Part shown: one piece after another, positions 24,506-60,859 of the stretch | How positions within the stretch are numbered: the first letter of the stretch is position 1 | Layout: each line of letters starts with the position of its first letter | Source of the DNA: a virus | Length of the DNA stretch: 64,000 bases | IMG/VR virus record: IMGVR_UViG_3300013119_001061 | Strand: one strand, 5' to 3' | The notes under the pieces: generated by a model | The model's input: only the letters and a program-made list of their open reading frames with translations | Told to the model about the DNA's origin: nothing | Databases searched by the model: none | Position numbers and translations under genes: made by a program

Positions 24506-25696
24506 ATGAATATTTGCATTCACAAAAGAATCTTGGGAACAACCCAGCATTTGTCGACTAATTTTGAGTCAAAATCTTCATGGGTAGAAGATCCAGATAG
24601 TGAAGATCTAACAATTGGATTCAAAAATAACGAGACTATTAATATTGTTTCCTTCCTTTTGAATAAGAAAATTCCTGATTCACCTGATAAGAAGTTTGCT
24701 CTGCCGTTTCGTCATTCAAGCTTAGAAAATATCTTGTGGTCTCATGTGTTGCCCAAGAAGGAATATAGAAAGTATTTCCAGAGTATCCAGAATGCAATTG
24801 GCGAAACTTTAAAGTCTGATCAATACGAATACTTTAATAATCGTATCTCTATTCAACAGAAGCTTATCTCCTTTCTTGAGCCATCTAAAATTGATGAAAA
24901 AGTTTTTGGAAAATATTGCGCAGATCCAGAGTTAGTCAACAAGTCTGTTTTGACAACATTTGCGCCAAAAAAAGGGTTTGCAAAAAATGTTGACTATAAT
25001 CTAGTAGGGACAAATACAGGAAGGCTCACGATATTAGCTGGTCCACAAATCCTTACTCTTAAAAAAGAACTAAGAAATATTTTGACGTCTCGATTTGAAG
25101 GCGGAAAGATAATCCAGTTTGACTATACTAGCCTTGAGCCAAGAGTTGCATTGATGTTATCAGGCAAGAATCCGGAAAGAGATATCTACACCAGTCTATG
25201 CAAGCAAGTTTTGGGAGGCAAATACGGCCGCCAAACTGCTAAGCTTCTTACTATCGCAACTCTCTATGGCATGGGAATCAATCGTGTCAAAGACTTGCTC
25301 GGTGTAAGTAAGATCACTGCACGAGAAGTTTTAGACCAGCTTGAAGATTTCTTTGGTGTTGAAGATATCAAAAAACAATTAGAAAAAGAGGCAGAATCCG
25401 GATTTATTAAAAACTACTTTGGTAGAAACATTCGAGTTAGAAACAATGCTTCACATGTCTTATATAATAACTATATTCAATCAACAGCAATGGATGCAGC
25501 GCTTGAAGGATTCTTTAAAGTAGTTCAAAACATAAAGAGGGAAAAATACCAGTGCATTCCGATCTTTGTTTTGCATGATGCTATTATTTTTGATTGTCAT
25601 CCTGAGTGCTTTGACAAATTAGAAGTTATAATGAATCCAGGACAAAATTTATCTAGTTTTGAATCACAACTTTATATGGAGGCTGAAGAAGTATAA
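24506..25696 (+). CDS. Family A DNA polymerase, polymerase domain only
   Basis: TGRL, motif A DYTSLEPR, motif B R..AK....LYG, NYFGR, NNYIQSTA, motif C LHDA. Confidence 0.85.
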   Translation: MNICIHKRILGTTQHLSTNFESKSSWVEDPDSEDLTIGFKNNETINIVSFLLNKKIPDSPDKKFALPFRHSSLENILWSHVLPKKEYRKYFQSIQNAIGETLKSDQYEYFNNRISIQQKLISFLEPSKIDEKVFGKYCADPELVNKSVLTTFAPKKGFAKNVDYNLVGTNTGRLTILAGPQILTLKKELRNILTSRFEGGKIIQFDYTSLEPRVALMLSGKNPERDIYTSLCKQVLGGKYGRQTAKLLTIATLYGMGINRVKDLLGVSKITAREVLDQLEDFFGVEDIKKQLEKEAESGFIKNYFGRNIRVRNNASHVLYNNYIQSTAMDAALEGFFKVVQNIKREKYQCIPIFVLHDAIIFDCHPECFDKLEVIMNPGQNLSSFESQLYMEAEEV

Positions 25697-26298
25697 TGGA
25701 TTTAGATATCGAGAAAATGCAGGAAGATTATGAGAAATTTCAAGCTCTGACTAAAAAGACGGGACCAAGAGCTAAGAAGTTACAAAAGCTAGTTGATAAG
25801 CTCGGAGAAAGACTAGTAATGGCACCCTCGTCAGAGAGAGATGAGTATTTCAATGCCTTCTCCGGCGGCCTTCTTGATCATTCTCTAAAGATCCTTGAAA
25901 CCAGCTACAAAGTCGCCAAGGGTTGTGGAATTGAAGTTTCAAATGAATCTATCATCCTATGCTCGCTCTTTTGTCTTATTGGAAAAGTCGGTGATGAAAA
26001 TCAAGACCTCTATATTCCTCAAGATAATTCGTGGAGAAAAGAAAATCTAGGTGAAAATTATAAATTCAATAATGATTTGCCTCACATGAGAACAACGCAT
26101 AGAAGTCTTCTCCTTTTGCAAAAGTTTGGAATTGAGCTTTCACACGATGAGTGGCTAGCAATTTTACTTGCGGATGGTTTAACAGATGATACGCGCCTTT
26201 ATTCAATGAGAGAGCCGTCACTAGCGCTCGTAATATCCTCATCGAATAAGCTTGTTCAGAGCAAGTCAAGAGAAGAAGATAATCCTGTTTCTTTCTAG
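25696..26298 (+). CDS. HD-domain-like protein with degenerate metal ligands
   Basis: APSS...NAFSGGLLDHSL present, but the expected HDxGK reads CLIGK and the later HDG reads ADG. Confidence 0.65.
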   Translation: MDLDIEKMQEDYEKFQALTKKTGPRAKKLQKLVDKLGERLVMAPSSERDEYFNAFSGGLLDHSLKILETSYKVAKGCGIEVSNESIILCSLFCLIGKVGDENQDLYIPQDNSWRKENLGENYKFNNDLPHMRTTHRSLLLLQKFGIELSHDEWLAILLADGLTDDTRLYSMREPSLALVISSSNKLVQSKSREEDNPVSF

Positions 26299-26318
26299 CT
26301 TCGTCCATATTTAAATAT

Positions 26319-27011
26319 ATGAGAAAAGAAATCAAAAGATTTAAACCTAAATTTATCAAGCGTGCAAATGACAGCACCACCGGCGCCGGCACCCGCGGAG
26401 CAATCTCTAATTCTACTCGACAAAACCCGCCAGATATCCACAGGCTTGGTTGGGCTCCTCGACCATTTCCTCGATCTGGTATGACAGGAGAGCCCAATAG
26501 CTCAATTATGGGCCGAATGGGAACAGGTTCATTGTCAGCCTATACTGATGTCGACCGCGAAGAATTCGAAGACCAGTCAGGAATGCCAGGAAAAGGCGGA
26601 AACTATAAGTTTGGAATGTCAAGACATTACAAGAACAAGGGCGGAGGAAAAGCTATGATGGGAACTGGATCCGGACCAATTGGTGAAGAAGTATTAAGAA
26701 AGATAATCAGGCAAGAGCTTGTAGAGGCTCTCGGAGACAAGTCTGGTAAAAAAGCATTTGCATATGAGCTTATGATGAGCCAAGAAGGCGACGATGAAAT
26801 CGACGAGGAAGAGGATGAGCTTGATGAATTCTCCGGCGCCACCGCCGTTGCAGGTGTATCATTACCTCTCGGAGCCTCAACCCCGGGCAAGAAAGCAAAG
26901 CCATCATGGGGAATAACAGCTAGAACATTGAATGGAACAGCTGTAAAGCCTGACAGTTCTAGCACAAGAATTCTAAAAATAAGAAGAATGAAAAAATCTG
27001 AATTATATTGA
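26319..27011 (+). CDS. Hypothetical Gly- and Glu-rich protein, possibly an internal head protein
   Basis: ATATTTA motif upstream; EEVLRKIIRQELVE; acidic tract ending LDE. Confidence 0.5.
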   Translation: MRKEIKRFKPKFIKRANDSTTGAGTRGAISNSTRQNPPDIHRLGWAPRPFPRSGMTGEPNSSIMGRMGTGSLSAYTDVDREEFEDQSGMPGKGGNYKFGMSRHYKNKGGGKAMMGTGSGPIGEEVLRKIIRQELVEALGDKSGKKAFAYELMMSQEGDDEIDEEEDELDEFSGATAVAGVSLPLGASTPGKKAKPSWGITARTLNGTAVKPDSSSTRILKIRRMKKSELY

Positions 27012-27036
27012 ACATTCTATGTGGGTTGATTACAAT
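27008..27036 (+). promoter_or_regulatory. Sigma70-like promoter for the SSB/recA operon
   Basis: TTGAAC-N17-TACAAT. Confidence 0.7.
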
Positions 27037-27074
27037 AACATTGATCAATAAAACGCCAACATAGGAGAAACATT

Positions 27075-27878
27075 ATGGCACTTGATTTTGATGCGATTCG
27101 TCGCAAGGTAGCACAACTTTCCGGCAACAAGCGAGGTTCATCATTTTGGCGCCCCGAGGAGGGTGAGCATACTGTTCGACTCGTGCCATTCTCTGATAAT
27201 GATGGGCAGCCATTTAAGGAGAGGTGGTTCTACTATAACGTAGGTGAGAACCGAGGTATTCTCGCTCCTAAGCAATTTGGTAAGCCCGATCCAATTCAGG
27301 AGCTTATTAACAAGCTTCGTGATGATGGCTCTCCTGAGTCACTTGAGCTTTGCAAGCGCTTATATCCCAAGATGCGTGGCTATGCTCCGGTCATCGTTCG
27401 CGGCGAGGAGTCAAAAGGAGTCCAGCTTTGGTCGTTTGGCAAGATGGTTTATCAAGATATTCTTAATATCATGCTCGATCCTGACTATGGTGATATCACT
27501 GACCCAGTCGAGGGCAGAGATATTAAAGTCACCCTTTCAAAGCAGCCAGGACAAAACTGGGCCAAGACTTCTGTGATGCCTCGAGGCAAGGTTACTGAGC
27601 TATCTGATGATACAGCAAAGATTAAAACGTATCTTGAAAATATTCCAAACCTTGATGAGATTTATTCGCTCGAGCCTTACGAAGAGATTGAGAAGAAAGT
27701 CAATGATTGGTTAAATGGATCAGCAGATTCTGACGAGGGAACTACTCGAGGAACTACGTCTACAACTACTGTATCATCACCTCCCAAGCCAGAGTCTACG
27801 AAATCAAAGACACCAAACGCAGAGACAAAGTCATATAACTCACTAGATGACGCATTTGCAGACTTGCTCGGAGACTGA
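27075..27878 (+). CDS. Single-stranded DNA-binding protein (gp32-like)
   Basis: FWRP..G...VRLVP, PF.E.WFYY, GVQLWSFGK, DYGDITDP..GRDI, acidic tail LDDAFADLLGD. Confidence 0.85.
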   Translation: MALDFDAIRRKVAQLSGNKRGSSFWRPEEGEHTVRLVPFSDNDGQPFKERWFYYNVGENRGILAPKQFGKPDPIQELINKLRDDGSPESLELCKRLYPKMRGYAPVIVRGEESKGVQLWSFGKMVYQDILNIMLDPDYGDITDPVEGRDIKVTLSKQPGQNWAKTSVMPRGKVTELSDDTAKIKTYLENIPNLDEIYSLEPYEEIEKKVNDWLNGSADSDEGTTRGTTSTTTVSSPPKPESTKSKTPNAETKSYNSLDDAFADLLGD

Positions 27879-27884
27879 TCATAA

Positions 27885-28640
27885 ATGGCTAAGGCAAAAA
27901 AGCCTGCAAAGACTGCAAAGAAAAAGTCAAAAGTATCTGACGATTTTACGGCAGACTTAATCAGGTCTCTTAATAAGGATCACGGAGGACGAATCGCATA
28001 CAATCTCAGTGTAGATGAGTCACCGACCCACGTGAAAGCGTGGGTCGGCACTGGGATTAGGCAGCTCGATCTACTGGTATCTAATCGAAAAAACGGCGGG
28101 CTACCCTGTGGCAGAATTGTCGAGATCTTTGGGCCACCATCAATCGGTAAGTCACATATCGCTTTGCAGATTGCGCGAAACACGCAATCAATGGGTGGCA
28201 TCGTTGTCTATATTGACACAGAGAACGGTACATCAGTAGAGAATCTGGCACTCCTCGGTGTTGATGTATCAAAGCGGTTTGTGTTTATCGAGACTGCCTG
28301 CACTGAGGAAGTGTTTGAAGTCGCAGAGTCAACGATCATGAAAGCCCGCGGCCTCAATAAAGATATTCCTATTACGATTATTTGGGATTCTGTGGCAGCA
28401 TCTTCTCCCAGGGCAGAGCTAACAGGCGATTATGATCAAAACTCTATCGGTCTTCAAGCAAGAACGATCTCAAAGGGCATGAGAAAGATCACCCAGGTCT
28501 TTGGTAGCACGAATACACTGTTCATCTGTCTAAATCAGACACGAACAAAGATTGGTGTTATGTACGGGGATCCCATGTGCGTCGACCCGTTTACGACTAA
28601 AATCAAAGTCAGGTATGATAACTCTAATTTCGGCCTATAG
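27885..28640 (+). CDS. recA: RecA/UvsX N-terminal half plus 20-aa split-intein N-fragment
   Basis: GGLPCGRIVEIFGPPSIGKS, YIDTE, WDSVAA, LNQTRTKIGVMYGDPM, then CVDPFTTKIKVRYDNSNFGL*. Confidence 0.95.
   Translation: MAKAKKPAKTAKKKSKVSDDFTADLIRSLNKDHGGRIAYNLSVDESPTHVKAWVGTGIRQLDLLVSNRKNGGLPCGRIVEIFGPPSIGKSHIALQIARNTQSMGGIVVYIDTENGTSVENLALLGVDVSKRFVFIETACTEEVFEVAESTIMKARGLNKDIPITIIWDSVAASSPRAELTGDYDQNSIGLQARTISKGMRKITQVFGSTNTLFICLNQTRTKIGVMYGDPMCVDPFTTKIKVRYDNSNFGL
28578..28637 (+). mobile_element. Atypical split intein, IntN (20 aa)
   Basis: Cys1 block A-like CVDPFTTKIKVR begins exactly where RecA similarity stops. Confidence 0.85.
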
Positions 28641-28685
28641 TTATATATGGAACTAAAACCTCGTTAAAACTATAGGTGGAATATT

Positions 28686-29696
28686 ATGATAGATTATTTT
28701 GATTTTGATTTTAAAATAAAAGATAATAAACCAATAACTAAAATATCTTTAAAGGCTAAGTTTAAAAAAGAAAAGCCAGCAATGAGAGAATCTGGTTATC
28801 CATTTAGTGGAGTAGAGCTGGGTTATTATATTCATCATATTGATGATAAAAATCTGGCTAACAATGTTTGGAAATTTAGAAAGAAGCTAGCAAATAAAAA
28901 CTATTTAATTGACTTCCTATTTGAAAACAACGTTATTTCATTGAAGGAATATGAGATATCAAATCTGTGGAAACTCAGGACGAGAAAAAAGTTTGTCAAA
29001 AACCATTCCATCGCTATGTCGTCTGAAGCTGCCAGGAAAAACATGTCAGATAGCTATGACAGGGAATTGCATTCAAAGATTCATAAAGAGTTGTGGAAAA
29101 ATAATCGTGAAAAGTATATAAAAGCAACACAGTCACCCAAAGTAAAAAAAAGAAGAATTGCATCATTTAAAAAGCACCTTGAAGATCCTGCTAACAAGAA
29201 AAAATATGATGAAGCAATGCAAAATCCTGAAAGAATTGAAAAAATAAGTAAAGCTGCTAAAAAGATGTGGGAAAACGCATCTAATGAGAAAAGAAATAAA
29301 ATGAGATCAAATTGGTCAAAAAAGCTTTCTTATAAAGGCAAGAAAATGAATTCAATAGAATTTAAAATTGCTAACTTGTTAGACGAAAAAAATATAAACT
29401 GGGAATATGAACCAGTAATTGAGTTTGAAAATTCATTTGTCCAGCCAGATTTTATAGTAAATAGTAGTATAGTAATTGAATGTTTCGGCGACTTTTGGCA
29501 TGCCAACCCATCGAAGTACGAAGATGATTTCGTCTTATATGCTGCAAAAACTGCAAAAGCTCAGAGAGCGTTTGATAAAAATAGACTAGGTTTGTTAAGT
29601 GAAAAATTTGAACATATTGTAATTTTGTGGGAAAATGAAATCAATAGTTCTGATATAGAAACAATATTAAAAGAGAGGGTTTTATGCCTATTGTAG
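28686..29696 (+). CDS. Free-standing endonuclease between the recA halves (Vsr/DUF559-like PD-(D/E)xK)
   Basis: Lys-rich helical repeats, NSIE..I..LL, QPDF, IECFGDFWHANP, ILWENE. Confidence 0.85.
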   Translation: MIDYFDFDFKIKDNKPITKISLKAKFKKEKPAMRESGYPFSGVELGYYIHHIDDKNLANNVWKFRKKLANKNYLIDFLFENNVISLKEYEISNLWKLRTRKKFVKNHSIAMSSEAARKNMSDSYDRELHSKIHKELWKNNREKYIKATQSPKVKKRRIASFKKHLEDPANKKKYDEAMQNPERIEKISKAAKKMWENASNEKRNKMRSNWSKKLSYKGKKMNSIEFKIANLLDEKNINWEYEPVIEFENSFVQPDFIVNSSIVIECFGDFWHANPSKYEDDFVLYAAKTAKAQRAFDKNRLGLLSEKFEHIVILWENEINSSDIETILKERVLCLL

Positions 29697-30049
29697 AAGA
29701 AGAATTGACGTTTTTCGAATTCGCTGAAAAGTTTTTAAATCTAAATGATATGAAAACACCGACAAACCTAGACATATCTAGTCTGGGCATAGAGATTGAA
29801 ACTCTGCTAAATGATGGAACTGCTGGTTTTCGGCCAATGAATTCGTTTATCGTGAAAGATCAAGTCGACTCCTACTGCAGGATTGATGAGCTAAGAGGAA
29901 CTAGCAATCACAGAGTTTTGTTCGGTAATGAGTACATACCTCTGTCTGAGCACCCAGAATCTATGATTATTGAAGAGCCAATGTGTGTCGTAGATACATC
30001 TGTTGAAGAGACAGAAAATTACATAGCAAATGGCCAGGTAAATCACAAT
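29684..30049 (+). mobile_element. Atypical split intein, IntC (carries blocks B, F and G)
   Basis: Block B TSNH, block F VVDTSV..TENYIANG, terminal HN, Thr as +1 residue. Confidence 0.88.
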
Positions 30050-30559
30050 ACGACTCCCGGCGGCGCCGCAATACCATTTCACTCCTCAGTTCGAATTAAA
30101 CTCGGCGCCGGCTCTCAAATCAAGAACAAAGAGGGCGATATCATAGGGATTAATGTCTCGGCGAAGACAATCAAGAACAAAGTGGCGCACCCATTCAGAA
30201 CTTGTCATTTTGAGATTCACTTTGGTGTCGGTGTCAAAGAGCATGAGCAAATCACAGATCTTCTTAGATCGTCTGACGACGTAGAGTTCGAAGGAAAGAC
30301 ATACTCTGTCGAAGGTGCAGGAGCTTGGAAGACACTATCAGTTATTGATTCAAAAACCGGTGAACTTATAGTAGAAAAGAAGTTCACCAAAAGTGGAATG
30401 GAAGATTTGTTAAACAGTGATGAGTATTTGCCTTATATTGAGACGATGCTAGAGAAGACTCTTATTAAGAATTTTTCCGGCAATCTAGATATTAATGCAG
30501 ATTCTTATGAAGAGGTCCGAGCAGTAGCAATGGACCTCGCGGAGGCAGAGTTAAAATGA
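29684..30559 (+). CDS. recA: Split-intein C-fragment (122 aa) plus RecA C-terminal half
   Basis: ...NYIANGQVNHN then TTPGGAAIPFHSSVRIKL, KNKVAHPFR. Confidence 0.95.
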   Translation: MPIVEEELTFFEFAEKFLNLNDMKTPTNLDISSLGIEIETLLNDGTAGFRPMNSFIVKDQVDSYCRIDELRGTSNHRVLFGNEYIPLSEHPESMIIEEPMCVVDTSVEETENYIANGQVNHNTTPGGAAIPFHSSVRIKLGAGSQIKNKEGDIIGINVSAKTIKNKVAHPFRTCHFEIHFGVGVKEHEQITDLLRSSDDVEFEGKTYSVEGAGAWKTLSVIDSKTGELIVEKKFTKSGMEDLLNSDEYLPYIETMLEKTLIKNFSGNLDINADSYEEVRAVAMDLAEAELK

Positions 30560-31020
30560 GCATGTTCGTTAAAGTAAAGCTAACACATCCCGATGCAAAG
30601 CTACCATCTCAAAAGATAGGTGATGTAGGCTGGGATCTAACATCAGTCGAGTCAGGAAATATTCCTGCCGGAAAAGTAACGTCAGTTTCTACCGGTGTTG
30701 TCTTAGCAGAATCACCATTCACGACTGATATTCATAAGTCTGTTATTATAAAAGTAGAAGGAAGATCAGGTTTAGCATTTAGACACGCCGTTTTTCCAGT
30801 GGGTGGTATCATTGACCCAGGATATCGAGGCGAGATATCTGTAATGCTCTATAATGGCGGTGACAAAGATTACCGGTTTGAAAAGGGCGATCGAATAGCA
30901 CAGCTGGTAATCTATGATGTGCATGCGAAGACTAGTAGTAACAAAACACAGTTCCTAGAAGTTGATACTGTTCATCCATCTCATCGAGGAGACAAGGGCT
31001 TTGGATCGTCAGGCAGATAG
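30556..31020 (+). CDS. dut: Trimeric dUTPase
   Basis: GDVGWDL, GRSGLA, GIIDPGYRGEI, GDRIAQL, RGDKGFGSSG. Confidence 0.95.
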   Translation: MSMFVKVKLTHPDAKLPSQKIGDVGWDLTSVESGNIPAGKVTSVSTGVVLAESPFTTDIHKSVIIKVEGRSGLAFRHAVFPVGGIIDPGYRGEISVMLYNGGDKDYRFEKGDRIAQLVIYDVHAKTSSNKTQFLEVDTVHPSHRGDKGFGSSGR

Positions 31021-31957
31021 ACCCGTCCTAATCTTCGATGCGATGAATTTATTTCTTCGTGTCTATTCTGCAAACCCAACAATAAGCCAGTATGGACATC
31101 ATGTCGGAGGTGTAGTCGGCTTTCTTAAGTCAATGAGAAATATCATTGATAAGTTCGCACCCTCCCAGATCTTTGTTGTCTGGGAGGGTGGCGGTAGTCA
31201 AAGACGCCGCGCCATCTATCCTGAATACAAGCATGGACGCAAGCCCAAGCGGATGAATAAGTTCTTTGATCAAGAGATCCCAGACACAATTCAAAGTAGA
31301 AATAACCAGATTGCATCGCTGATTAGCATACTAAAGAACACACCCATATGCCAGCTTTATGTAGGCGACTGCGAAGCTGATGATGTTATCGGATATCTCT
31401 GCAAGTATAAGCTAAGAGACAGTGACAAGATTATCGTGTCGTCTGATCAGGATTATTATCAACTGCTCAATGAGTCTACACAGATCTTTCGCCTAGGCAA
31501 AAAAGAAATTGTAAAAGCTTCGGATGTTCTGACTCTAACAGGTGTAACTGCTTCAAATTATTGTGTCGCCAAAGCAGCCGCCGGAGATTCGTCAGATAAC
31601 ATCTCTGGCATCAAGGGCGCCGGATACAAGACGATGTCCAAGAGATTTCCATTTTTACGAAACGAAGAAGAAGCAGATATTAAAAATATTTTTGACCATG
31701 CTTTAGCGAACATAGATAAGAAAATAAAGGTCTACAGAACGATCATAGATAATTTTGATATTCTGGAACGTAACTGGAAGCTTACATACTTAGATTCGAA
31801 CAATTTAGCTGCAAATCAGGTGAATCAAATAGAGGATATCGTAGATACATTTGTGCCCTGCAAGAATAAGATAGGCATGATGAGGAAATTGATTCATGAG
31901 GGAATTCAAAACTTCGATGTCGAATCCTTGTTTCTTAGCTTTACTTATCTAGATTAA
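31001..31957 (+). CDS. 5'-3' flap exonuclease / T4 RNase H-like
   Basis: IFDAMN, RR.IYPEYK..R, EADDVIG, SSDQDYYQL, GDSSDNISGIKGAG; likely TTG start at 31001 after GAGGAG. Confidence 0.92.
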   Translation: MDRQADRPVLIFDAMNLFLRVYSANPTISQYGHHVGGVVGFLKSMRNIIDKFAPSQIFVVWEGGGSQRRRAIYPEYKHGRKPKRMNKFFDQEIPDTIQSRNNQIASLISILKNTPICQLYVGDCEADDVIGYLCKYKLRDSDKIIVSSDQDYYQLLNESTQIFRLGKKEIVKASDVLTLTGVTASNYCVAKAAAGDSSDNISGIKGAGYKTMSKRFPFLRNEEEADIKNIFDHALANIDKKIKVYRTIIDNFDILERNWKLTYLDSNNLAANQVNQIEDIVDTFVPCKNKIGMMRKLIHEGIQNFDVESLFLSFTYLD

Positions 31958-31971
31958 AAAAGAGGTTATTA

Positions 31972-33396
31972 GTGACACACGAGCATAGTATTACGTTTGC
32001 ATCTTACGGAAAAGACTTTCAAGAAAAAATCGTTCAGAGCTTGCTCACAGACAGAATGTGGGCAGAACAAATGGCAGAGGTCATTAACATTGAATTCTTC
32101 GATCTTAAATATCTAAAGTTCTTAGCTGATCGATATTTTTCATACCACGAGAAGTATAAAGATTTCCCGACTCTGCCTTTGCTTGTTTCAATTATTCGAG
32201 ATGATCTAAAGACGGGCAACGATATCATTCTTCGTGATCAGATTGTTGATTACCTCCAGAGAATCAGGCACAATCCAAGTATGGGTGACCTTGAATATGT
32301 CAAGGATAAGGCACTTGATTTCTGTCGCAAGCAGGCATTTCGCGGCGCGCTTGAAGAGGCAGTTGATCTAATCCAGGTTGATAAGTTTGACGCAGTAATG
32401 GATCTCATGCGAACAGCAATGTCAGTAGGAACAACACCCTCAGTTGGACATGATTTCTTTGAGGACATGGAGGCACGATTCGTTCGAATTTCTCGCCACC
32501 CGATTCCGACAGGGATTCCAAAGCTCGATGAGAAATCAATCCTTGGCGGAGGCCTAGGTAAAGGAGAGATCGGTGTAGTTGCAGCCCCGACCGGAGTTGG
32601 TAAATCACATATGCTTGTTAGTCTTGGGTGCGCAGCGCTTCAGGCAGGATTCAATGTAATTCACTATACGTTCGAATTAACTGAGACTCGAACTGGCCTC
32701 CGCTACGACTCTAATCTCTGCGATATTCCAAGCAATGATATTCCAGAAAGAAAAGAAGAGGTCATAGCCTATTATGAAGAGAACAAAAATTCTCTCGGAA
32801 AGCTAATGATCAAAGAGTATCCCACCGGAACAGCAACCGTCCAGACACTTCGATCTCATATTGAAAAATTAAGCCTCAAAGGATTTATTCCGCACATACT
32901 GATTGTTGACTATGCAGATATCATGCGATCCTCACGACAATATGACTCAATGAGACACGAGCTCAAAAAGGTATATGAGGACCTTCGAAACCTAGCAATG
33001 GAAAAGAACCTCCCAGTATGGACTGCATCACAAAGTAATAGAGATGCAGCAAACTCAGACGTTATTGGCCTTGAAAGCATGGCTGAGTCATACGGAAAGG
33101 CACAGGTTGCTGACCTTGTTTTGTCAATCTCGAGAAAAGCAGAAGAGAAATCTACAGGCCTAGGGCGTCTATTTGTTGCAAAGAATCGAGCTGGCCGAGA
33201 CGGAATCTTATTCCCGATTACAATCGATACTGCCAAGAGCAAGATTGCTGTTATTGAAGGAGCTGGTGAAATGTCGTTCTCTGATGCAAAGAACCAAAAT
33301 GAGGGCGATCTCAAAAAACTGCTGCAACAAAAATGGAAACAAGTTAGTAAAATTGATGTAAAAACTACAGATAAAGAAATCAGCGAGGAAAAATGA
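31972..33396 (+). CDS. dnaB: Replicative DnaB/gp41-like helicase
   Basis: APTGVGKS, IKEYP, IVDYADIM, WTASQSNR, KNRAG. Confidence 0.93.
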   Translation: MTHEHSITFASYGKDFQEKIVQSLLTDRMWAEQMAEVINIEFFDLKYLKFLADRYFSYHEKYKDFPTLPLLVSIIRDDLKTGNDIILRDQIVDYLQRIRHNPSMGDLEYVKDKALDFCRKQAFRGALEEAVDLIQVDKFDAVMDLMRTAMSVGTTPSVGHDFFEDMEARFVRISRHPIPTGIPKLDEKSILGGGLGKGEIGVVAAPTGVGKSHMLVSLGCAALQAGFNVIHYTFELTETRTGLRYDSNLCDIPSNDIPERKEEVIAYYEENKNSLGKLMIKEYPTGTATVQTLRSHIEKLSLKGFIPHILIVDYADIMRSSRQYDSMRHELKKVYEDLRNLAMEKNLPVWTASQSNRDAANSDVIGLESMAESYGKAQVADLVLSISRKAEEKSTGLGRLFVAKNRAGRDGILFPITIDTAKSKIAVIEGAGEMSFSDAKNQNEGDLKKLLQQKWKQVSKIDVKTTDKEISEEK

Positions 33397-35864
33397 CATT
33401 TACATATGATGATGCTTATGCAGGCGCCCTAAAATATTTTAACGGTGATGAACTTGCTGCTGGTGTATGGGCTGGCAAGTATGCACTGCAAGATAATGGC
33501 GAATTTTTTGAAACATCGCCAGATCAGATGCATCGTAGGTTAGCAAAAGAATTTGCGCGAATCGAAGCGAAATTTGATAACCCAATGTCAGAAGAAGAAA
33601 TTTTTGACTCAATGGACCGGTTCAAGTATATCGTCCCTCAAGGCTCACCAATGTCAGCTGTCGGAAACGATATTCAAATGCAGTCGGTCGGAAACTGCTT
33701 TGTCATTGAGGCACCTCACGACTCATACGGCGGGATTCTAAAGACAGATCAAGAGCAAGTTCAGATCATGAAGCGCCGAGGAGGTGTAGGATTTGATATC
33801 TCTACAATTCGACCGCAGGGAATGCATACGTCAAATGCTGCAAAGACAACTGACGGCATCGGCGTCTTTATGGAACGATTTTCAAACTCCTGTCGTGAAG
33901 TTGCTCAAGGCGGCCGCCGCGGCGCCCTAATGATGTCAATCTCAGTCCACCACCCAGATATCATGACATTTATTAATATCAAGCGAGATCAAAGCAAGGT
34001 AACTGGAGCCAATATCTCAATCAGGCTCTCAGACGAATTCTTGACTGCTGTTGAGAATGATGAAAACTATGAAACCCGATGGCCGGTAGATTCAACAGGT
34101 AATAACAGAGAACTCACAGCTAGAATGCCCGCTAAGGCTGTATGGGATGCAATCGTAGACTCAGCACATCAAACAGCTGAACCGGGCATCTTCTTTTGGG
34201 ATAACGTTCTAAATACAACACCTTCTCAAATCTACAAAGATGAAGGATTTGAGACAGTGAGCTCAAATCCCTGCGGGGAAATTGTAATGTCAGCATTTGA
34301 CAGCTGTCGGCTCCTCCTCCTCAATACGACATCATTCGTTGATGATCCATTCACTTCACGAGCCAGATTTAACTTCAAGCTATTCAATACAATGAGCCGA
34401 AAGGCCCAAAGAATGATGGATGACTTGGTTGAAATTGAAACTGAGAAGATTGATAAAATTCTGGCAAAGATTGAAGCAGACCCAGAACCAATTGAAGTAA
34501 AAAGGACAGAACTTGATCTTTGGAATAATGTCCGACAAATCGCTCTCTCTGGACGCCGAACAGGCTTGGGACAAACAGGGTTGGGCGACACGCTTGCAAT
34601 GCTTGGCTTGAAATATGACTCAGAAGACGGAATTGCAATGACTGGAGAAATCTATCGTGCATTAGTTCTTGCTTCATACACAGAGTCTTGCTACCTTGCG
34701 AAAGAGCGAGGCCAATTCCCAATCTACAACTTCGAGAAGGAAGAGGGAAATCAATATATCGAACGATTATTTGATACCTCACCAGAGTTACGAGAATTGC
34801 ATCGTAAGTACGGCCGAAGAAATATTGCATTAACCACCACGGCGCCGTGCGGAAGTGTCTCATGTCTCACCCAGACAACCTCAGGTATCGAACCAGTGTT
34901 CATGCTCGAATATACCCGAAGGAAAAAGATCAACTCAAACGACCCAAATGTTGAAGCTGACTTCGTAGATGACCTCGGTGATCGATGGCAACACTTCACG
35001 GTATACCACCACAACCTAAAGAAGTGGATGGATATCACGGGCGAAACAGACATTACAAAGTCACCATATTGTGGTGCTACAGCTAATGAGATCGACTGGG
35101 AACATGCTGTAGATGTTCAAGCAGTAGCACAAAAGTGGATTGATCACTCAATCAGCAAGACATTGAATCTACCCGAATCAGCAACAAGAGAAGACGTAGC
35201 CAAAGTATACTGGCGTGGGTGGAAAGCCGGACTCAAGGGCGCAACTGTATATCGAGACGGATCCCGCGCCGGTGTCCTTGTTTCCAATGATACAGCAAAT
35301 GAATCGGATGAAACATTCCAGCAACATCAAGCACCGCAGCGCCCGCACGAGCTTCCTTGCGAAATTCACCGAGCTTCAATCAAAGGAGAGAAATGGACGA
35401 TTCTTGTTGGGCTAATGGATGGAAAGCCATACGAGATCTTCGGTGGGCTATCAAAATATATTGAGATACCGCGTGTATATGAAAAAGGCGTTATCATCAA
35501 GCACCCACGCAAAACAAAGAATTCTGTGTATGATCTCAAGTTCGGGTTCAAGGGCGATGAGTTTGCTGTCAAGGATGTCGTCGAGGTATTCGACAATCCC
35601 AACCATTCAGCGTTCACTCGAACAATCTCTCTGGCTATGCGCCACGGCGCCCCCGTATCATTTATGGTTGAACAGCTTCAAAAAGATAAGGACACTGACT
35701 TTACGTCATTCTCGCGTGTAGTTGCCCGAGTTCTCAAGAAATACATTGAAGATGGAACGAAGTCAAGTGAGAAGAAGTGTGACAACTGCAACGAAGAAGG
35801 TAGCCTGGTGTTTCAAGAGGGGTGTGTTACGTGCCTGGCTTGTGGAGGTTCAAAATGCGGGTGA
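33393..35864 (+). CDS. nrdJ: Ribonucleotide reductase, class II (adenosylcobalamin-dependent)
   Basis: GNCFV, RRGGVG, GRRGA, EPG, SNPCGE, TAPCGS, TSGIEP, SISKT.N, YRDGSR, C-terminal Zn ribbon; no ATP cone and no small subunit in the window. Confidence 0.9.
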   Translation: MTFTYDDAYAGALKYFNGDELAAGVWAGKYALQDNGEFFETSPDQMHRRLAKEFARIEAKFDNPMSEEEIFDSMDRFKYIVPQGSPMSAVGNDIQMQSVGNCFVIEAPHDSYGGILKTDQEQVQIMKRRGGVGFDISTIRPQGMHTSNAAKTTDGIGVFMERFSNSCREVAQGGRRGALMMSISVHHPDIMTFINIKRDQSKVTGANISIRLSDEFLTAVENDENYETRWPVDSTGNNRELTARMPAKAVWDAIVDSAHQTAEPGIFFWDNVLNTTPSQIYKDEGFETVSSNPCGEIVMSAFDSCRLLLLNTTSFVDDPFTSRARFNFKLFNTMSRKAQRMMDDLVEIETEKIDKILAKIEADPEPIEVKRTELDLWNNVRQIALSGRRTGLGQTGLGDTLAMLGLKYDSEDGIAMTGEIYRALVLASYTESCYLAKERGQFPIYNFEKEEGNQYIERLFDTSPELRELHRKYGRRNIALTTTAPCGSVSCLTQTTSGIEPVFMLEYTRRKKINSNDPNVEADFVDDLGDRWQHFTVYHHNLKKWMDITGETDITKSPYCGATANEIDWEHAVDVQAVAQKWIDHSISKTLNLPESATREDVAKVYWRGWKAGLKGATVYRDGSRAGVLVSNDTANESDETFQQHQAPQRPHELPCEIHRASIKGEKWTILVGLMDGKPYEIFGGLSKYIEIPRVYEKGVIIKHPRKTKNSVYDLKFGFKGDEFAVKDVVEVFDNPNHSAFTRTISLAMRHGAPVSFMVEQLQKDKDTDFTSFSRVVARVLKKYIEDGTKSSEKKCDNCNEEGSLVFQEGCVTCLACGGSKCG

Positions 35865-35926
35865 GTTCCTGAAGTCATGTGTAAGTCATAATTCGCTAAC
35901 TATAATAACGCTGAATACGGAGACGC

Positions 35927-37765
35927 ATGAAATCAATTGAGCAAAAATATAAGAAGCTTGATGATATCGAGCACTGCTTGCTCCGTCCAGGAATGTATGT
36001 AGGGTCGACAAAAACACGCAAAGAAGTCATGAATCTCATTGACGAGGACGATGTTTTCTCTGAAAGAGAAGTAAGTGTCAATCCTGCCTTTATTAAGATA
36101 TTTGATGAGATTATTTCAAATGCAGCAGATGAACACCGACGAAACAAAAAGCTTGACTTAATTGAGGTCATCACTGACGCAGAGACTGGTGAAATTACTG
36201 TTAGTGACAATGGCGGAATTCCAGTAATTCTTCATTCTGAGCACAATGAATACATTCCAGAGATGATTTTCTCAAACCTAAAGGCTGGCTCAAATTTTGA
36301 CGACACTGAGAATAGAATCGTCGCCGGAACCAACGGCGTCGGAGCAACTCTGACCAACATATTTTCTTCAAAGTTTGCAATCGAAACGTGTGACAAAAAG
36401 AAGCTCTACACTCAAGAGTTCAGAAACAACATGCGCGCCAGGTCTGAACCTAAAGTCATCAAGTCGAAAAGCAGCAAGGGCTATACAAAGATATCGTATA
36501 TTGCGGACTTCAATCAGTTTGGATTGAGCGGCCTAGATGATGATCACATTGAGATCATGAGAAAGAGGTGTATTGACCTCGCAGCTTGCAATCCTTGTTT
36601 GACTGTAAGATTCAATGGGACAAAATACAGATACTCAACTTTCAATTCATACTGTCGCCTCTATATTGATGATATTGTCTATGAAGCCTCTGATCGTTGG
36701 CGAATTGGCGTAGGGTCATCTAGCGGAAGCCTAAAGCAAATATCATTCGTCAACAGTGTCGAGACAAAAGATGGCGGCACACATGTCGACGCAGTCTTGA
36801 GTCAAATTATTGCAGAGGTTCGAAAGAAACTCAAGAAGAAGCACAAAGTAGATCTGAAGCCAGCAGAGATCAAGAACCACATCTTTGTATTTGTAAGTGC
36901 AGATATTGTTAACTCATCATTCTCATCTCAGACCAAAGAGAAACTAATCACTGACCCACGTGACTTCGGGTCAAAGCACACACTCTCGGATAAGTTTCTA
37001 AAGTCTGTTTGTGAATCAGAGATGATCCAGAACATCTTAGACTGGGCAATTCAAAAGAAGGATGCAGATGAGAGAAAAGAGCTCAGAAAACTCAACAAGA
37101 AGCTCGGCAAAGAAAAGGTCCAGAATCTGATTGACGCCAAGGGAAAAGACAGGGAATCTTGCACGCTAGCTTTGTTCGAGGGGAAGTCAGCCCTGGCAGC
37201 TTTTAGAAAGTTTAGAAATCCAATGATTCAAGGGTCTTTCCCGCTTAGAGGTAAATTTCTAAACATCGCAGATATGCCGTCCTCCAAGATTATCAAGAAC
37301 AAAGAGGTCTTATCTCTTCTTAAGGCTACCGGCCTTCGTCTTGGAGAGGATGCAGAGAATCTTAGATATGGAAAAATCTTGATCTATTCAGATGCTGATC
37401 CTGATGGAGATTCAATTGCCGGCCTGCTAACAAACTTCTTTGGGAGGTTCTGGCCCGACCTGCTAAAAGACAACAAACTTTTCCGAGTAATGACACCACT
37501 TGTTGTTGTCAAGAAAAAAGACAAAAAGCTGTTGTTCTACACAGATGAAGAATTTGTCGAATGGAAATCCGCAGAGGACAATATTAAATCCTGGGATATA
37601 TCATACAAAAAAGGCCTCGCATCCCTCGCAGATGAAGAATACGAAGAGATTATTAGAAATCCAGAAATGTTTGCCCTTATTCCGGGTGATAACCTAAGGC
37701 AATCGTTGGACAATTGGTTCGGCTCAGATCCTGCAGTTAGAAAACAAAAGATTTTAAATAAGTAA
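35927..37765 (+). CDS. Type IIA topoisomerase large subunit (gp39+gp60-like, ATPase + TOPRIM)
   Basis: EHCLLRPGMYVGS, DEIISNA.D, DNGGIP, GTNGVG, EGKSA, PLRGK, DADPDG, YKKGL. Confidence 0.93.
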   Translation: MKSIEQKYKKLDDIEHCLLRPGMYVGSTKTRKEVMNLIDEDDVFSEREVSVNPAFIKIFDEIISNAADEHRRNKKLDLIEVITDAETGEITVSDNGGIPVILHSEHNEYIPEMIFSNLKAGSNFDDTENRIVAGTNGVGATLTNIFSSKFAIETCDKKKLYTQEFRNNMRARSEPKVIKSKSSKGYTKISYIADFNQFGLSGLDDDHIEIMRKRCIDLAACNPCLTVRFNGTKYRYSTFNSYCRLYIDDIVYEASDRWRIGVGSSSGSLKQISFVNSVETKDGGTHVDAVLSQIIAEVRKKLKKKHKVDLKPAEIKNHIFVFVSADIVNSSFSSQTKEKLITDPRDFGSKHTLSDKFLKSVCESEMIQNILDWAIQKKDADERKELRKLNKKLGKEKVQNLIDAKGKDRESCTLALFEGKSALAAFRKFRNPMIQGSFPLRGKFLNIADMPSSKIIKNKEVLSLLKATGLRLGEDAENLRYGKILIYSDADPDGDSIAGLLTNFFGRFWPDLLKDNKLFRVMTPLVVVKKKDKKLLFYTDEEFVEWKSAEDNIKSWDISYKKGLASLADEEYEEIIRNPEMFALIPGDNLRQSLDNWFGSDPAVRKQKILNK

Positions 37766-37775
37766 AAATAATCAT

Positions 37776-38312
37776 ATGACATTATTATTAGCTATGCTTT
37801 TGTCGACAAACAATACTGTGTGTTTTGCCCCTATTGATATTTCTAAATCTCATATTTCTTCTCGTTATGGAAAAAGGACATTTAAAAAAGGAAAAGTAAT
37901 AAATGGTCATATGATAATGCTTAATCATGATCATCATAGTTTCCACCTTGGCGTAGATATTGTAGCAAAAAAAGGTACCCACGTGAAAAATCAATTCCGC
38001 GGAAGGGTAATCAAAACTTACAAAAGCGATCGCAACGGATCTTACGTTCGGATTGAACACAGTGACAAAGAGCATGATACGGTTCAAGTTCTTTACCACC
38101 ATCTTGATAAAATCTTTGTAAAAGAGGATAGCTGGATCTACCCAGGAGAATTGATCGGAACAGTAGGGGATACGGGTACAGATCACTACCCACATTTACA
38201 TCTCAGTGCTCGATATTTCTCTTATTCAACGAGACAAAAGAAGGATATTAACATTGAAGAAGTTTTTAAGTTCTGTAACTATGAATATAGACATCACGAT
38301 TATGCCCGCTAA
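37776..38312 (+). CDS. M23 family peptidase
   Basis: HLGVD, YHHL, G..G.TG...PHLH. Confidence 0.85.
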   Translation: MTLLLAMLLSTNNTVCFAPIDISKSHISSRYGKRTFKKGKVINGHMIMLNHDHHSFHLGVDIVAKKGTHVKNQFRGRVIKTYKSDRNGSYVRIEHSDKEHDTVQVLYHHLDKIFVKEDSWIYPGELIGTVGDTGTDHYPHLHLSARYFSYSTRQKKDINIEEVFKFCNYEYRHHDYAR

Positions 38313-38324
38313 GGAGAGCTTAAT

Positions 38325-39686
38325 ATGTTATTGAAAGATAAAAAGAGTACTTTTGTTGGTAGAACAGTAGAAAACTTCTTTGATAATGAGCTCAGAAGCT
38401 ACGCGCTTTACACTATCACGAATCGAGCAATCCCGTCAGTGATCGACGGATTCAAGCCGTCACAGCGAAAGATTGCATATGCTGCAAAGCTAGTCTGGAA
38501 GACAGGCAAAGAAAAGCCAATGAAGGTGTTTCAGCTTGGGGGCTACGCAGCGTCTGCAACAATGTTCCACCACGGATCACTTGATGGCACAATCATCACG
38601 ATGACACAGGATTTCAAGAACTCAATGTCTATCTTCGAGGGGATAGGTCAGTTTGGGTCTCTTCGATCTCCAGAGGCCGGAGCCCCGAGATACGTCGGTG
38701 TAAGGTTCAATAAAAACTTTAACCTGCTTTATAAAGACTTTGATCTCCTTGATCACAAATACGAAGAGGGCGAGAAGATCGAGCCAAAGTACTTCCTGCC
38801 CATCATACCGACTGTCTTGCTAAACGGCGGCTCAGGTATCGCTGTGGGATTCTCAACCAACATTCTGAATCGGAACCCGAAGGATTTAATCAAGGCATGT
38901 CTGAAGGTGTTAGCAGGAGAAAAATGCCCACCAGTCAGCCCGTGGATCAATGGCTTCACTGGTGAGTTCAGGCAGGTACCTGACGCGCCAAAGTCATGGG
39001 AGATTTACGGTAAGTACGAAGTAAAGAATACGACTAAGGTAGAGGTTACAGAACTTCCGCCGTCATTTACATACGAAAAGTACGAGGCTCATCTTGATTC
39101 ATTAATTGAAACGGGCGCATTGTCATCATATGAAGACCATTCAGCTGAAACCCCGCACTATATTCTAAAGTTCAAAAGGTCAGAGCTTGCAAAACTAACA
39201 AAGAGAGGTAGGCTTGAAAGCGTTCTCAAAATGAGAGAGCGAGTAGGTGAAAACTATACAACGTTAGACGAAAACGGAGATCTAAAAGTATTTGAATCAC
39301 CCGAGGAGATAATCCGATACTTTATCAAGTTCAGGCTCAAGTACTATACAATTAGAAAGAACCACCTGATATCAAAGCTCACAAAAGAGCTGTGGATCCT
39401 GGAGAATAGAAAACGGTTCATTGAGGAGATACTAGGCGGCAATCTCAAGATTAACAACCGTCCCAAAAGTGATATTATTTCAAGCTTGAAAAAGATGAAT
39501 TTCAAAAATCAAAATGGATCATACAACTATTTGCTGGATATGCCGATTCATAGCCTGACAAAGGAAAAAGCTGAAGAACTAAGGGCTTTGTATGACACTA
39601 GAAAAGAAGAGCTGGAAGAGGTTGGCAAAAAAACAACTAAAACAATGTTTGAGAAAGACTTGCGTGATCTTTATAAAAAGATCTAA
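38325..39686 (+). CDS. Type IIA topoisomerase breakage-reunion subunit (gp52-like)
   Basis: RAIPSVIDGFKPSQRK, FHHG, GAPRY (catalytic Tyr), EP.YFLPIIP.VL.NG..GIA.GF. Confidence 0.93.
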   Translation: MLLKDKKSTFVGRTVENFFDNELRSYALYTITNRAIPSVIDGFKPSQRKIAYAAKLVWKTGKEKPMKVFQLGGYAASATMFHHGSLDGTIITMTQDFKNSMSIFEGIGQFGSLRSPEAGAPRYVGVRFNKNFNLLYKDFDLLDHKYEEGEKIEPKYFLPIIPTVLLNGGSGIAVGFSTNILNRNPKDLIKACLKVLAGEKCPPVSPWINGFTGEFRQVPDAPKSWEIYGKYEVKNTTKVEVTELPPSFTYEKYEAHLDSLIETGALSSYEDHSAETPHYILKFKRSELAKLTKRGRLESVLKMRERVGENYTTLDENGDLKVFESPEEIIRYFIKFRLKYYTIRKNHLISKLTKELWILENRKRFIEEILGGNLKINNRPKSDIISSLKKMNFKNQNGSYNYLLDMPIHSLTKEKAEELRALYDTRKEELEEVGKKTTKTMFEKDLRDLYKKI

Positions 39687-39727
39687 TTTATAATAGAATA
39701 TCTAATAACAAAAGAAGGAAATCAATA

Positions 39728-40330
39728 TTGATTAAGAATGTTAACATTGACGGTCGAATTAGCGAAGCAAAGCTTATGTACAACCCAATTGTCGTCAGGG
39801 TCGAGAAATTTACACCAGATGGTGCCAAGAAGTTCACATCAGATATGTCAGCAGCACACAATTCCGGCCAAGATATCATCCCGATTGTGATTGACTCATA
39901 TGGTGGACAAGTTTATAGCCTTATGTCAATGATTAGTGATATCAAAAACTCAAAGCTACCAGTGGCTACTATTGTTGAATCAAAGGCTATGTCTTGCGGA
40001 GCTGTTTTATTCACATTCGGAGAGGATGGACATCGCTATATGGCACCCGATGCCACAGTTATGATTCACGATGTAAGCTCCGGAGGATTTGGAAAAATTG
40101 AGGAGCTTAAAGCAGACGTTAAAGAGGCTGAAAGGCTTGATACAAAGATTTACAAGATGATGGCGCAAAACTGCGGGAAGAAGGATGATCACTTTAAAAA
40201 GATTGTTCACAAAAAAGGACATGCAGATTGGTTTCTTGATGCAGATGAGTGCAAGAAGAACAATGTATGTAATCATATACGAATACCCGCGTTTAATGTT
40301 AGTATTGATGTAACGATGGAGCTAGAATGA
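39728..40330 (+). CDS. clpP: ClpP-like protease
   Basis: IDSYGG, AMSCGA, MIHDVS, DWFLDADE. Confidence 0.88.
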   Translation: MIKNVNIDGRISEAKLMYNPIVVRVEKFTPDGAKKFTSDMSAAHNSGQDIIPIVIDSYGGQVYSLMSMISDIKNSKLPVATIVESKAMSCGAVLFTFGEDGHRYMAPDATVMIHDVSSGGFGKIEELKADVKEAERLDTKIYKMMAQNCGKKDDHFKKIVHKKGHADWFLDADECKKNNVCNHIRIPAFNVSIDVTMELE

Positions 40331-58046: not shown

Positions 58047-59762
58047 TTGTCACATTCAGATACGAAAGGAGACTTCGGAAGCTTTGTGCGCCCCAATCGA
58101 TTCGTCGGTTTACACGGGCACTCAGGCTTCTCGTAGTCGACTTACGACGGACTCGGCTATCCAGCTCAGCATATTGACTTCGTTCTTGACAACGAAATGG
58201 ATGCATGGGCACTAACTGACCACGGTCACGGCTCTGGCTTAGCACATGCTCACAAGCACTTCGACAAAATGAAGAAGGCCGGCCGCAAGTATCGGCAGGT
58301 ATACGGTGTTGAGTTCTACTTCGTCGAGGATCTCGATGTTTGGAAGCAAAACTACCTGGGTCACAAAGAAAAAGTCAAGGCTGAGAGAGATGCAAAGAAA
58401 GCTGAGAAGCTTGCAACAACCGATCTAAGCTCTGACAATGAAGATGATCTCAAATCTGAAGGACACACCATTGAGAATGAGGAGGAGTCAAAAGGCGGAG
58501 GTAAGGGGAAACCCGAATGGATGCGCCGCTATCACCTCGTAATCACTGCAAGAAACGCAGCAGGCCTAGCCAATCTTTTCACGCTAGTAAAGAGAGGATA
58601 CACCGACGGCTTCTATCGGTTCCCACGAATTGACTTCAAGCTTCTCAAGCAATACAGCGAAGGTCTAACTGTAAGCTCAGCATGCATTGGCGGAATTACC
58701 GCAGGACGAACATTCCAGCAATTCCCGGGCGTTGATTTCATGGATCTTAAGCCTGATTTGCTAGATGACCCGTCAAAGATGAAGAATCTGATGGGTGTGC
58801 TCGGAAACATAACAGATCGGTTTGTCGATGCAGTAGGACAAGACAACTTCTTCTATGAGCTGCAGTTCAATAAGCTCCCAGCCCAGCATCTATCTAACCG
58901 TGCGCTTCTCGAACTACACGATCAGACGGGAATCGGGCTTATCACCACATGTGACTCCCACTATCCCGGCAAAGAATTATGGGAAGCCCGGGAGCTATAT
59001 AAGAAGCTAGGCTGGATGGGAAATGATCCGTCACCTTTGCCGAAGTTCGACGAGCTAAAGTGTGAGCTTTATCCAAAAAATGCCTCAGAGGTGTGGGATG
59101 AGTTCGACCGCGACTGGCATGCCTATGACTTTTACAAAGGCAGGGAAGAGCTTATTAGAGATAGTGTAGAGAGGACACACGATATTGTCTGGGATCGTTA
59201 TGAAGATGTATGGGTCGACTCTAAGGCTAAGCTACCAAACTATGCTGTGCCTCAAAAGGGACATGCATGCTATCCTGAGGCACCCAAAGATACACCCTTT
59301 CAGCAGCTTGGAAAGCTTGTAAAAGCAGCAATGATCAGTCATGATATGGCCGAAAAACCTGAGTATGTTGCGAGGATCAAAGAAGAGCTAGCTGACATTA
59401 AGTTCCTCGGATTTGAAAACTACTTCCTGACAATGTATGATGTTTTCCACTTGGCCGAGAAGAAAACTCTCTTTGGGCCTGGCCGCGGCTGCTTTTTACC
59501 TGATACACGTGTAAAAATGTCCGACGGATTAATGAACACAATTGAAGCAATTTCTCCCGGTGATCACGTAATTGACGCATACGGAGAAAGTCAAGAGGTT
59601 ATAAAGAAGTTTGTATATGATATCGAGGAAGATATTGTTGAGCTTGAATTTGATGATGGTATCGTAATTAAGTGCACAGTAGATCATAAGTTCTTGACGT
59701 CAAATCGAGGATGGGTTGAGGCTCAAAACTTAAGCGACGAAGATGTTATTGTTGATGTTTGA
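58047..59762 (+). CDS. dnaE: DNA polymerase III alpha N-terminal half (PHP domain) plus split-intein N-fragment; in-frame TAG at 58134-58136
   Basis: FVGLHGHSGFS*STYDG lies upstream of the tracked ORF (58197); ALTDHG, YGVEFY, SACIGG, DSHY, YFL, GPGRG|CFL. Start (TTG 58047 or GTG 58086) is uncertain. Confidence 0.9.
59490..59759 (+). mobile_element. Split intein IntN (90 aa)
   Basis: CFLPDTRV, GDHV, CTVDHKFLT..RGWVEA..L. Confidence 0.93.
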
Positions 59763-59808
59763 TATTTATAAATAGTTTAGTTATTCGACCCGGCCCGATA
59801 TACTTATA

Positions 59809-60771: not shown

Positions 60772-60859
60772 AAAGCTTGTTCCGTATGATGGAAAAGTAA
60801 TTGACCTATGTGTTGAAAATTCACACACGTATAACGTTGAAGGAAAAGCAGTTCACAAT
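60752..60859 (+). mobile_element. Split intein IntC (36 aa)
   Basis: MTKLISKK, VIDLCVENSHTY, terminal HN, Ser as +1 residue. Confidence 0.93.

Follow-up and report, generated by a model that had tools for sequence, protein, structure and literature searches.

A phage recA split in its L2-loop codons by an endonuclease-broken mini-intein, with predicted rejoining by trans-splicing

How a phage could obtain an intact recombinase from a recA gene that lies in two pieces is the question raised by IMG/VR virus record IMGVR_UViG_3300013119_001061, of which a stretch of 64,000 nucleotides (nt), here called the window, was analyzed. Three open reading frames (ORFs) are read from the sequence on the plus strand, at positions 27885-28640 (251 amino acids, aa), 28686-29696 (336 aa) and 29684-30559 (291 aa). 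The first runs to ...KIGVMYGDPM, continues with the 20 residues CVDPFTTKIKVRYDNSNFGL and stops at a TAG at 28638-28640. The third opens with 122 non-RecA residues that contain GTSNH and VVDTSVE and end in NYIANGQVNHN, after which TTPGGAAIPFHSS follows. A preliminary description, made from the letters alone, had proposed a recA that stops behind GVMYGDPM and a 20-residue N-terminal intein fragment (IntN), a 336-aa gene, and a 122-aa C-terminal intein fragment (IntC) leading into TTPGG, and all of these elements were found where it had placed them. The analysis presented here makes it very probable that recA is split by a class 1 mini-intein, itself broken by an endonuclease gene, and that the two products would be rejoined by trans-splicing, as predicted from sequence features and structural models.

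The two outer ORFs hold the parts of one RecA. The first ORF matches the Pfam RecA profile over positions 10-200 (E 1.7e-37) and the third over positions 198-261 (E 5.7e-13), and these adjoining ranges indicate a single RecA with a single cut. The N-extein (27885-28577, residues 1-231, ending in ...GVMYGDPM) belongs to a RecA/UvsX-like recombinase, with 89% identity to the unsplit protein P0012, and its ORF also matches the UvsX-like PHROG family phrog_97 (E 8.5e-54). The C-extein (30050-30559, 169 aa and a stop) begins at the Thr+1 of TTPGGAAIPFHSS in the L2 loop and is 88.8% identical to P0012. A tblastn search of the window with an unsplit homolog recovered two RecA pieces only, 89.2% and 88.8% identical; neither is truncated or frameshifted, and they are conserved to the same degree. 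The fractured gene is the only recA/uvsX-type gene within the window.

The cut is also exact. Uninterrupted RecA homologs are numerous (about 395-399 aa, at most 89% identical to the C-extein) and read GVMYGDP-T-TTPGG, that is, GDP(T/M)TTPGG, at the corresponding site, which indicates an exact insertion between GDPM and TTPGG, within the codons of the L2 DNA-binding loop. It had been proposed that splicing would restore GDPMTTPGG, and this predicted ligation product occurs naturally in the unsplit homolog P0158. When joined, the exteins are colinear with the uninterrupted allele L064 (1203 versus 1200 nt, 82.5% nucleotide identity, with 77 of 90 nt matching around the junction). The empty site of the L064 type reads ...GGAGATCCTACT/ACGACACCCGGA..., the slash marking the insertion point.

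The residues found at this point carry the features of a class 1 intein: Cys1, a TxxH block B, a block F Asp, a C-terminal His-Asn, Thr+1 and the fold of a HINT domain. IntN (28578-28640, 20 codons and the TAG) supplies strands beta1-beta2 and block A, in which Cys1 is the nucleophile. Cys1 (Cys232 of the N protein) stands directly behind the last RecA residue and is invariant in 13 N-halves, and the IntN core CV(D/S)P(F/Y)TTKI.(V/I)(R/K) is kept in relatives. IntC (29684-30049, 122 aa) supplies helix alpha1 and all of blocks B (G72-T73-S74-N75-H76), F (V103-D104...V107) and G (N120-H121-N122). The TSNH of block B, the block F and the terminal HN that the preliminary description had picked out on IntC are thus present, and they are conserved: all 23 IntC sequences share H76, D104, N120, H121 and N122, the relatives conserve G72, and 27 sequences have Thr+1 (Thr123) without exception. 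Across four relatives, IntC is 82, 61, 51 and 42% identical and the C-extein 69, 50, 47 and 43%, with the IntN core retained, so the intein pieces are conserved like the exteins.

Structural modeling gives further evidence. IntC modeled alone with AlphaFold2 (AF2) from 23 homologs reached a predicted local distance difference test score (pLDDT) of 94.2, and the model begins with a helix at residues 10-18. In a Foldseek search of the PDB its best matches were almost all inteins or HINT domains, including Pho RadA (query TM-score, TMq, 0.68-0.73), Mtu RecA, Npu DnaE, Ssp DnaB, the atypically split Cat (6dsl) and VidaL (6vgv); the Foldseek probability was 1.00 for Pho RadA, Mtu RecA, Npu DnaE, Ssp DnaB and other inteins.

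When N-protein residues 212-251 were co-folded with IntC residues 1-135 on our own alignments, three runs gave ipSAE values of 0.82, 0.80 and 0.83, versus 0.03 for the best of three controls; of 80 solved complexes 58 attain the mark applied to this score, as do 2 of 110 mismatched pairs. Contacts agree between the runs to at least 76%, with a partner pLDDT of at least 57. In the predicted interface, IntN (residues 229-248) faces IntC residues 1-11, 34-39, 75-77 of block B and the terminal 120-122, and it pairs with the IntC strands at 1-11 and 34-39. The HINT fold and the docking of the two fragments, which had been put forward as checks on a split intein, were both obtained as model predictions, which support a putative IntN-IntC association. 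The opposite polarity noted earlier for the two fragments was recovered as well: IntN has a net charge of +1 and IntC of -16, of which -4 lies within its first 25 residues, the reverse of the DnaE pair encoded elsewhere in the window, whose IntN is acidic and IntC basic.

Several observations weigh against a trans-splicing intein. The search with intein profiles gave only a weak match of IntC to Pfam Intein_splicing (PF14890), at 16.4 bits below the gathering threshold of 35.8 and over residues 97-122 only, a score that can be attributed to a split query devoid of block A and to a divergent family. The IntC profile likewise matches PDB sequences weakly, the best being the Spl DnaX mini-intein at E 0.0075, yet that alignment places blocks B and F/G correctly. 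In block F, a Glu takes the place of the His often found at one position, and relatives vary there. The success of the co-fold may partly mirror likeness to, or the model's memory of, solved split-intein complexes. Finally, the count of RecA genes covers the window, and a second, intact recA may lie elsewhere in the phage.

These features can be assembled into a proposed pathway. A class 1 mini-intein would sit in the L2-loop codons of recA, and a Vsr-like endonuclease gene would have split it in the beta2-alpha1 loop, a position termed S1. Two polypeptides would then be made, RecA(1-231)-IntN(20 aa) and IntC(122 aa)-RecA(169 aa), and the basic IntN would bind the acidic IntC, supplying the beta1-beta2 strands that alone are lacking from its HINT domain. 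From the chemistry of class 1 inteins we infer that a thioester at Cys1 would be attacked by Thr+1 and that cyclization of Asn122 would follow, the product being a 400-aa RecA with the junction ...GVMYGDPM-TTPGGAAIPF.... The endonuclease would presumably cut the intein-less recA of co-infecting phages and thereby spread the whole cassette.

The predicted docking would equally suit mere association, with the intein halves serving as a non-covalent dimerization device or being catalytically dead, and RecA working as two chains without a peptide bond. Assembly without splicing has a precedent in the endonuclease-fractured NrdA of phage Aeh1 (PMC3045599). Such an outcome is nevertheless unlikely for recA: Cys1, H76, D104, H121, N122 and Thr+1 show little or no variation over dozens of diverged relatives, which is unexpected if the chemistry is dispensable, and a RecA that kept a 142-residue domain in its L2 DNA-binding loop would probably be unable to bind DNA.

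The second intact recA that may exist outside the window would leave room for a decaying gene, killed by the endonuclease insertion and surviving as pseudogene remnants. This explanation is very improbable, since the exteins are intact and as close to the unsplit homolog as given above, the layout is retained in many diverged phages with intein pieces conserved like exteins, and IntC has a ribosome-binding signal and a start codon of its own. That signal is the Shine-Dalgarno-like AAAGAGAGGG (29670-29679, read from the sequence), which falls within the 3'-terminal part of the endonuclease gene, 4 nt before the ATG of IntC. IntN and IntC are thus encoded by separate ORFs, the one closed by a stop behind IntN and the other opened by its own ATG at 29684 after a GAGAGGG Shine-Dalgarno sequence.

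The endonuclease ORF shares the frame of the RecA N-terminal ORF (28686 minus 27885 is 801 nt), group I introns with Vsr-like endonucleases occur in recA genes (PMC2677866), and in one relative (L007) a group I intron follows the intein site at a distance of five codons. Even so, the idea that the 1-kb interval is removed as a group I or II intron, or bypassed by readthrough or frameshifting, to leave a contiguous cis-splicing intein hardly survives two in-frame stops between the RecA-N and endonuclease ORFs (TAG 28638 and TAA 28662), endonuclease and IntC ORFs that overlap by 13 nt in different frames, and relatives that retain the IntN stop and the IntC start even where no endonuclease gene lies between them. 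The intron form of this idea was rejected on an Rfam scan of 27000-31500 that showed no intron at E<=1, compared with the group I intron RF00028 found in L007 right behind the TTPGG codons (71 bits, E 7.6e-18), a positive control indicating that the method works on such DNA. The interval is thus very probably not an intron, in keeping with the preliminary description.

The preferred explanation, a split intein broken by an endonuclease gene, also requires an account of the middle gene (28686-29696). The 336-aa ORF has no Pfam match; its product has 38 homologs, some of them annotated as Vsr or DUF559. A profile built from 30 homologs matches E. coli Vsr (1cw0/1vsr, E 7e-5) over PDF...G.FWH...D...WE. 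The AF2 model (pLDDT 91.5) consists of an N-terminal beta-hairpin and helical repeats followed by a C-terminal Vsr-like/EDxHD nuclease domain at about residues 214-336, and its best Foldseek matches are Vsr 1cw0 and the catalytic domain of I-Bth0305I (3r3p), with target TM-scores (TMt) of 0.69-0.72. D269, H272 and D297 do not vary, and 90% or more of the sequences keep E265; these four probably correspond to the EDxHD motif described for the I-Bth0305I family (PMC3239194). The N-terminal region presumably binds DNA. Taken together, profile, model, conserved catalytic residues and low GC content identify the gene as a putative free-standing homing endonuclease of the Vsr-like, EDxHD type, predicted to cleave the intein-less allele.

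I-Bth0305I offers a close comparison for such a target. Encoded in the recA of Bacillus phage 0305phi8-36, it likewise combines an N-terminal DNA-binding region with a C-terminal Vsr-like domain, its 3r3p structure is among the best fold matches, and it targets the FGDP codons of the phage recA L2 loop (PMC3239194). Unlike I-Bth0305I, which resides in a group I intron, the endonuclease gene described here lies inside a split intein, and the endonuclease profile did not pick up 3r3p in its search of PDB sequences.

GC content falls from the exteins (0.46 and 0.43) through the intein pieces (0.41 and 0.38) to the middle gene (0.30), a gradient that fits a nested mobile element, and no terminator-like site was found within the cassette. 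The 45-nt spacer between the first two ORFs contains a predicted RNA hairpin (28623-28689; -19 kcal/mol, z -3.23, with none of 200 shuffles as stable), whose 10-bp core stem (28633-28642 with 28668-28677) spans the IntN stop codon. The hairpin pairs the Shine-Dalgarno sequence (AGGUGG) and the AUG of the endonuclease gene and so probably limits its translation. In one relative (L001) the ORFs overlap and there is accordingly no spacer.

This arrangement closely follows the fractured genes that Dassa, London, Stoddard, Schueler-Furman and Pietrokovski described in 2009 from marine phage metagenomes (PMC2677866). As there, a host N-part with IntN, a free-standing endonuclease and IntC with the host C-part lie on the same strand (PMC2677866). 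The published spacers measure 27-51 nt and hairpins precede 15 of 16 endonuclease genes (PMC2677866); the 45-nt spacer seen here falls within that range, and the hairpin over the endonuclease start, the endonuclease/IntC overlap and the Vsr-like family are shared as well. The stages of the 2009 model are also represented in the present family, as contiguous mini-inteins, split inteins with an endonuclease gene, and split inteins after endonuclease loss. Two points differ: the host gene here is recA, and the split lies near the N-terminus (20/122 aa) rather than at the canonical position (about 100/35 aa).

The position of the split was resolved by comparison with contiguous relatives (L015, L017, L045, L052 and others; 133-165 aa). 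These read CV.P.T.K.(K/R).R, then a linker, then a helix with E(L/I)(T/S)F.E.A, and the linker between beta2 and alpha1 varies from a few to about 35 residues. The break falls in this linker in every split relative. A shift to position S2 was considered for relatives with an IntN of 32-36 aa (...DENSLFAERFREYN...) and rejected, since contiguous L052 shows the additional segment to be a linker insertion with the usual helix behind it, which places all breaks at S1. The split is therefore at S1, behind beta2 and before alpha1, and not at S2 as in AceL/GOS TerL. S1 was defined, as the position after beta2, for VidaL and PolB16, and natural short IntN fragments have been published over a range of 15-37 aa (PMC13014065).

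The recA intein resembles VidaL (16-aa IntN, 6vgv) and PolB16 OarG (15-aa IntN) in being split right behind beta2, with a short IntN and a long IntC that holds blocks B, F and G (PMC13014065, PMC10189870). VidaL is cysteine-dependent, as the recA intein would be by its Cys1. In sequence, however, it is unlike VidaL: 6vgv was found by fold only (18% identity, Foldseek E 0.039, TMq 0.50) and was absent from the IntC profile search of PDB sequences at E<=10. The recA family further differs from VidaL and PolB16 in its host site, the RecA L2 loop, and in IntN length, 20 aa here and 14-36 aa in relatives. Its junction is Cys1/Thr+1, compared with Ser1/Ser+1 in PolB16; the combination of Cys1 with Thr+1 is known in class 1 inteins (PMC10189870). 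The atypical split with a tiny IntN and Thr+1 that the preliminary description had emphasized is thus borne out, but not as a novel type, as S1 inteins, fractured genes and Cys1/Thr+1 have all been published (PMC13014065, PMC10189870, PMC2677866).

Like the RecA inteins of Mycobacterium leprae and Mtu, the element occupies a RecA gene, and Mtu RecA is among its top fold matches; those inteins are contiguous and bacterial, unlike the split phage intein. The M. leprae intein site lies a few residues upstream and has Ser+1. The L2 loop has been described as the intein insertion site in M. leprae recA (PMC3239194).

A family survey was carried out with the IntC profile, which found 129 representative proteins at E<=0.001, 30 of them at E<=1e-30, and 56 IMG/VR loci. 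Profile-found and further loci, 65 in all, were parsed, and both junctions were found in 46; in class counts that include duplicates, these comprise 7 contiguous inteins (133-165 aa), 11 split inteins with a Vsr-like endonuclease gene in the break (IntN 15-22 aa, this window included), 6 with an HNH endonuclease gene (IntN 14-16 aa), 21 without an endonuclease gene (IntN 14-36 aa) and one (L063) with unclassified ORFs in the break (IntN 24 aa). The three-gene layout is also seen on distant phage contigs. In some proteins (P0227, P0233, P0238, P0243) the endonuclease is fused in frame to IntC; a 523-aa fusion of RecA-N and endonuclease called in L004 was rejected because of an internal stop under translation table 11. 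Insertion occurs in two registers one codon apart, GDPx/TTPGG and GDP/TTTPGG. Among GenBank phages, blastn and tblastn found none with the IntC and returned matches to the RecA C-extein only, from residue 120 onward.

The survey shows variation in both the length of IntN and the identity of the invading gene. In three loci (L037, L041, L042) the natural IntN has 14 residues, one instance being CVSPETKIKVRRRV; this is below the 15 aa of the PolB16 IntN, described as the shortest characterized (PMC10189870). An unrelated HNH-type gene (L003:4192-4998; Pfam HNH, E 0.0012) occupies the equivalent intein break in some phages and a Vsr-like gene in others, a distribution that suggests either separate invasions or the exchange of one endonuclease for another. 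Whether the family as a whole is new is a more tentative matter: it may constitute an undescribed RecA L2-loop allele with all fracture stages (contiguous mini-intein, split with a Vsr-like or HNH gene, endonuclease-IntC fusion, and split with the endonuclease lost), with natural IntN fragments down to 14 residues and a Cys1/Thr+1 junction, a claim to which we give somewhat less than even weight.

Other mobile elements cluster at the same codons. The recA of L007 combines a split intein without an endonuclease gene with the group I intron mentioned above (L007:5021-5436), five codons from the intein site, and the contig of P0133 has a Vsr-like gene at the position of that intron. In some relatives a second, different intein ending SHN/T stands in tandem 6-7 residues upstream, before (T)xxGDP, and in P0299 an intein lies between ETT and TGG; these observations come from P0219, P0220, P0222, P0239, P0242 and P0299. 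The L2-loop codons of phage recA are thus a hotspot for mobile elements, where a stretch of about 12 codons accommodates a group I intron and no fewer than three intein positions.

A second fractured gene is present in the same window, at 58197-63370. It encodes DnaE (Pol III alpha) in ORFs 58197-59762 and 60752-63370 and carries a split intein of the canonical kind, with an acidic 90-aa IntN starting CFLPDT and a basic 36-aa IntC ending VHN/S. The break holds a gene for a 320-aa product, with a 46-nt spacer and a 20-nt overlap. This product has helical repeats and the PDF strand in common with the recA endonuclease (24% identity, E 3e-7) and a PD-(D/E)xK-like motif, ...VEVKG, in place of ECFGDFWH.

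The surroundings of recA (24506-40000) encode, in order, a gp32-like single-stranded DNA-binding protein, recA, dUTPase, a 5'-3' exonuclease, DnaB helicase, ribonucleotide reductase and topoisomerase II subunits. This order is common to relatives on contigs of 150-240 kb, and together the shared order and the contig sizes suggest a large uncultured aquatic phage lineage. Among these relatives, inteins are found in DnaB and ribonucleotide reductase too (L007, L005).

Both the arrangement and the lopsided split are of kinds already published, and the general view of inteins is unchanged. What the RecA L2-loop split intein provides is a clear illustration of the gene-fracture pathway. Split inteins with a short IntN are wanted for protein semisynthesis, as the N piece can be made chemically, and few have been characterized (AceL/GOS TerL, VidaL and PolB16; PMC13014065). 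The locus and its relatives add an S1-type family unrelated in sequence, with an IntN of 14-36 aa, a Thr+1 and contiguous versions for comparison. If the proposed reading is true, the RecA L2-loop intein family would serve as a model for the origin of split sites and as a source of short-peptide trans-splicing tools. And if the predicted splicing holds, the phage would depend on a recombinase that is itself dependent on post-translational ligation within its DNA-binding loop.

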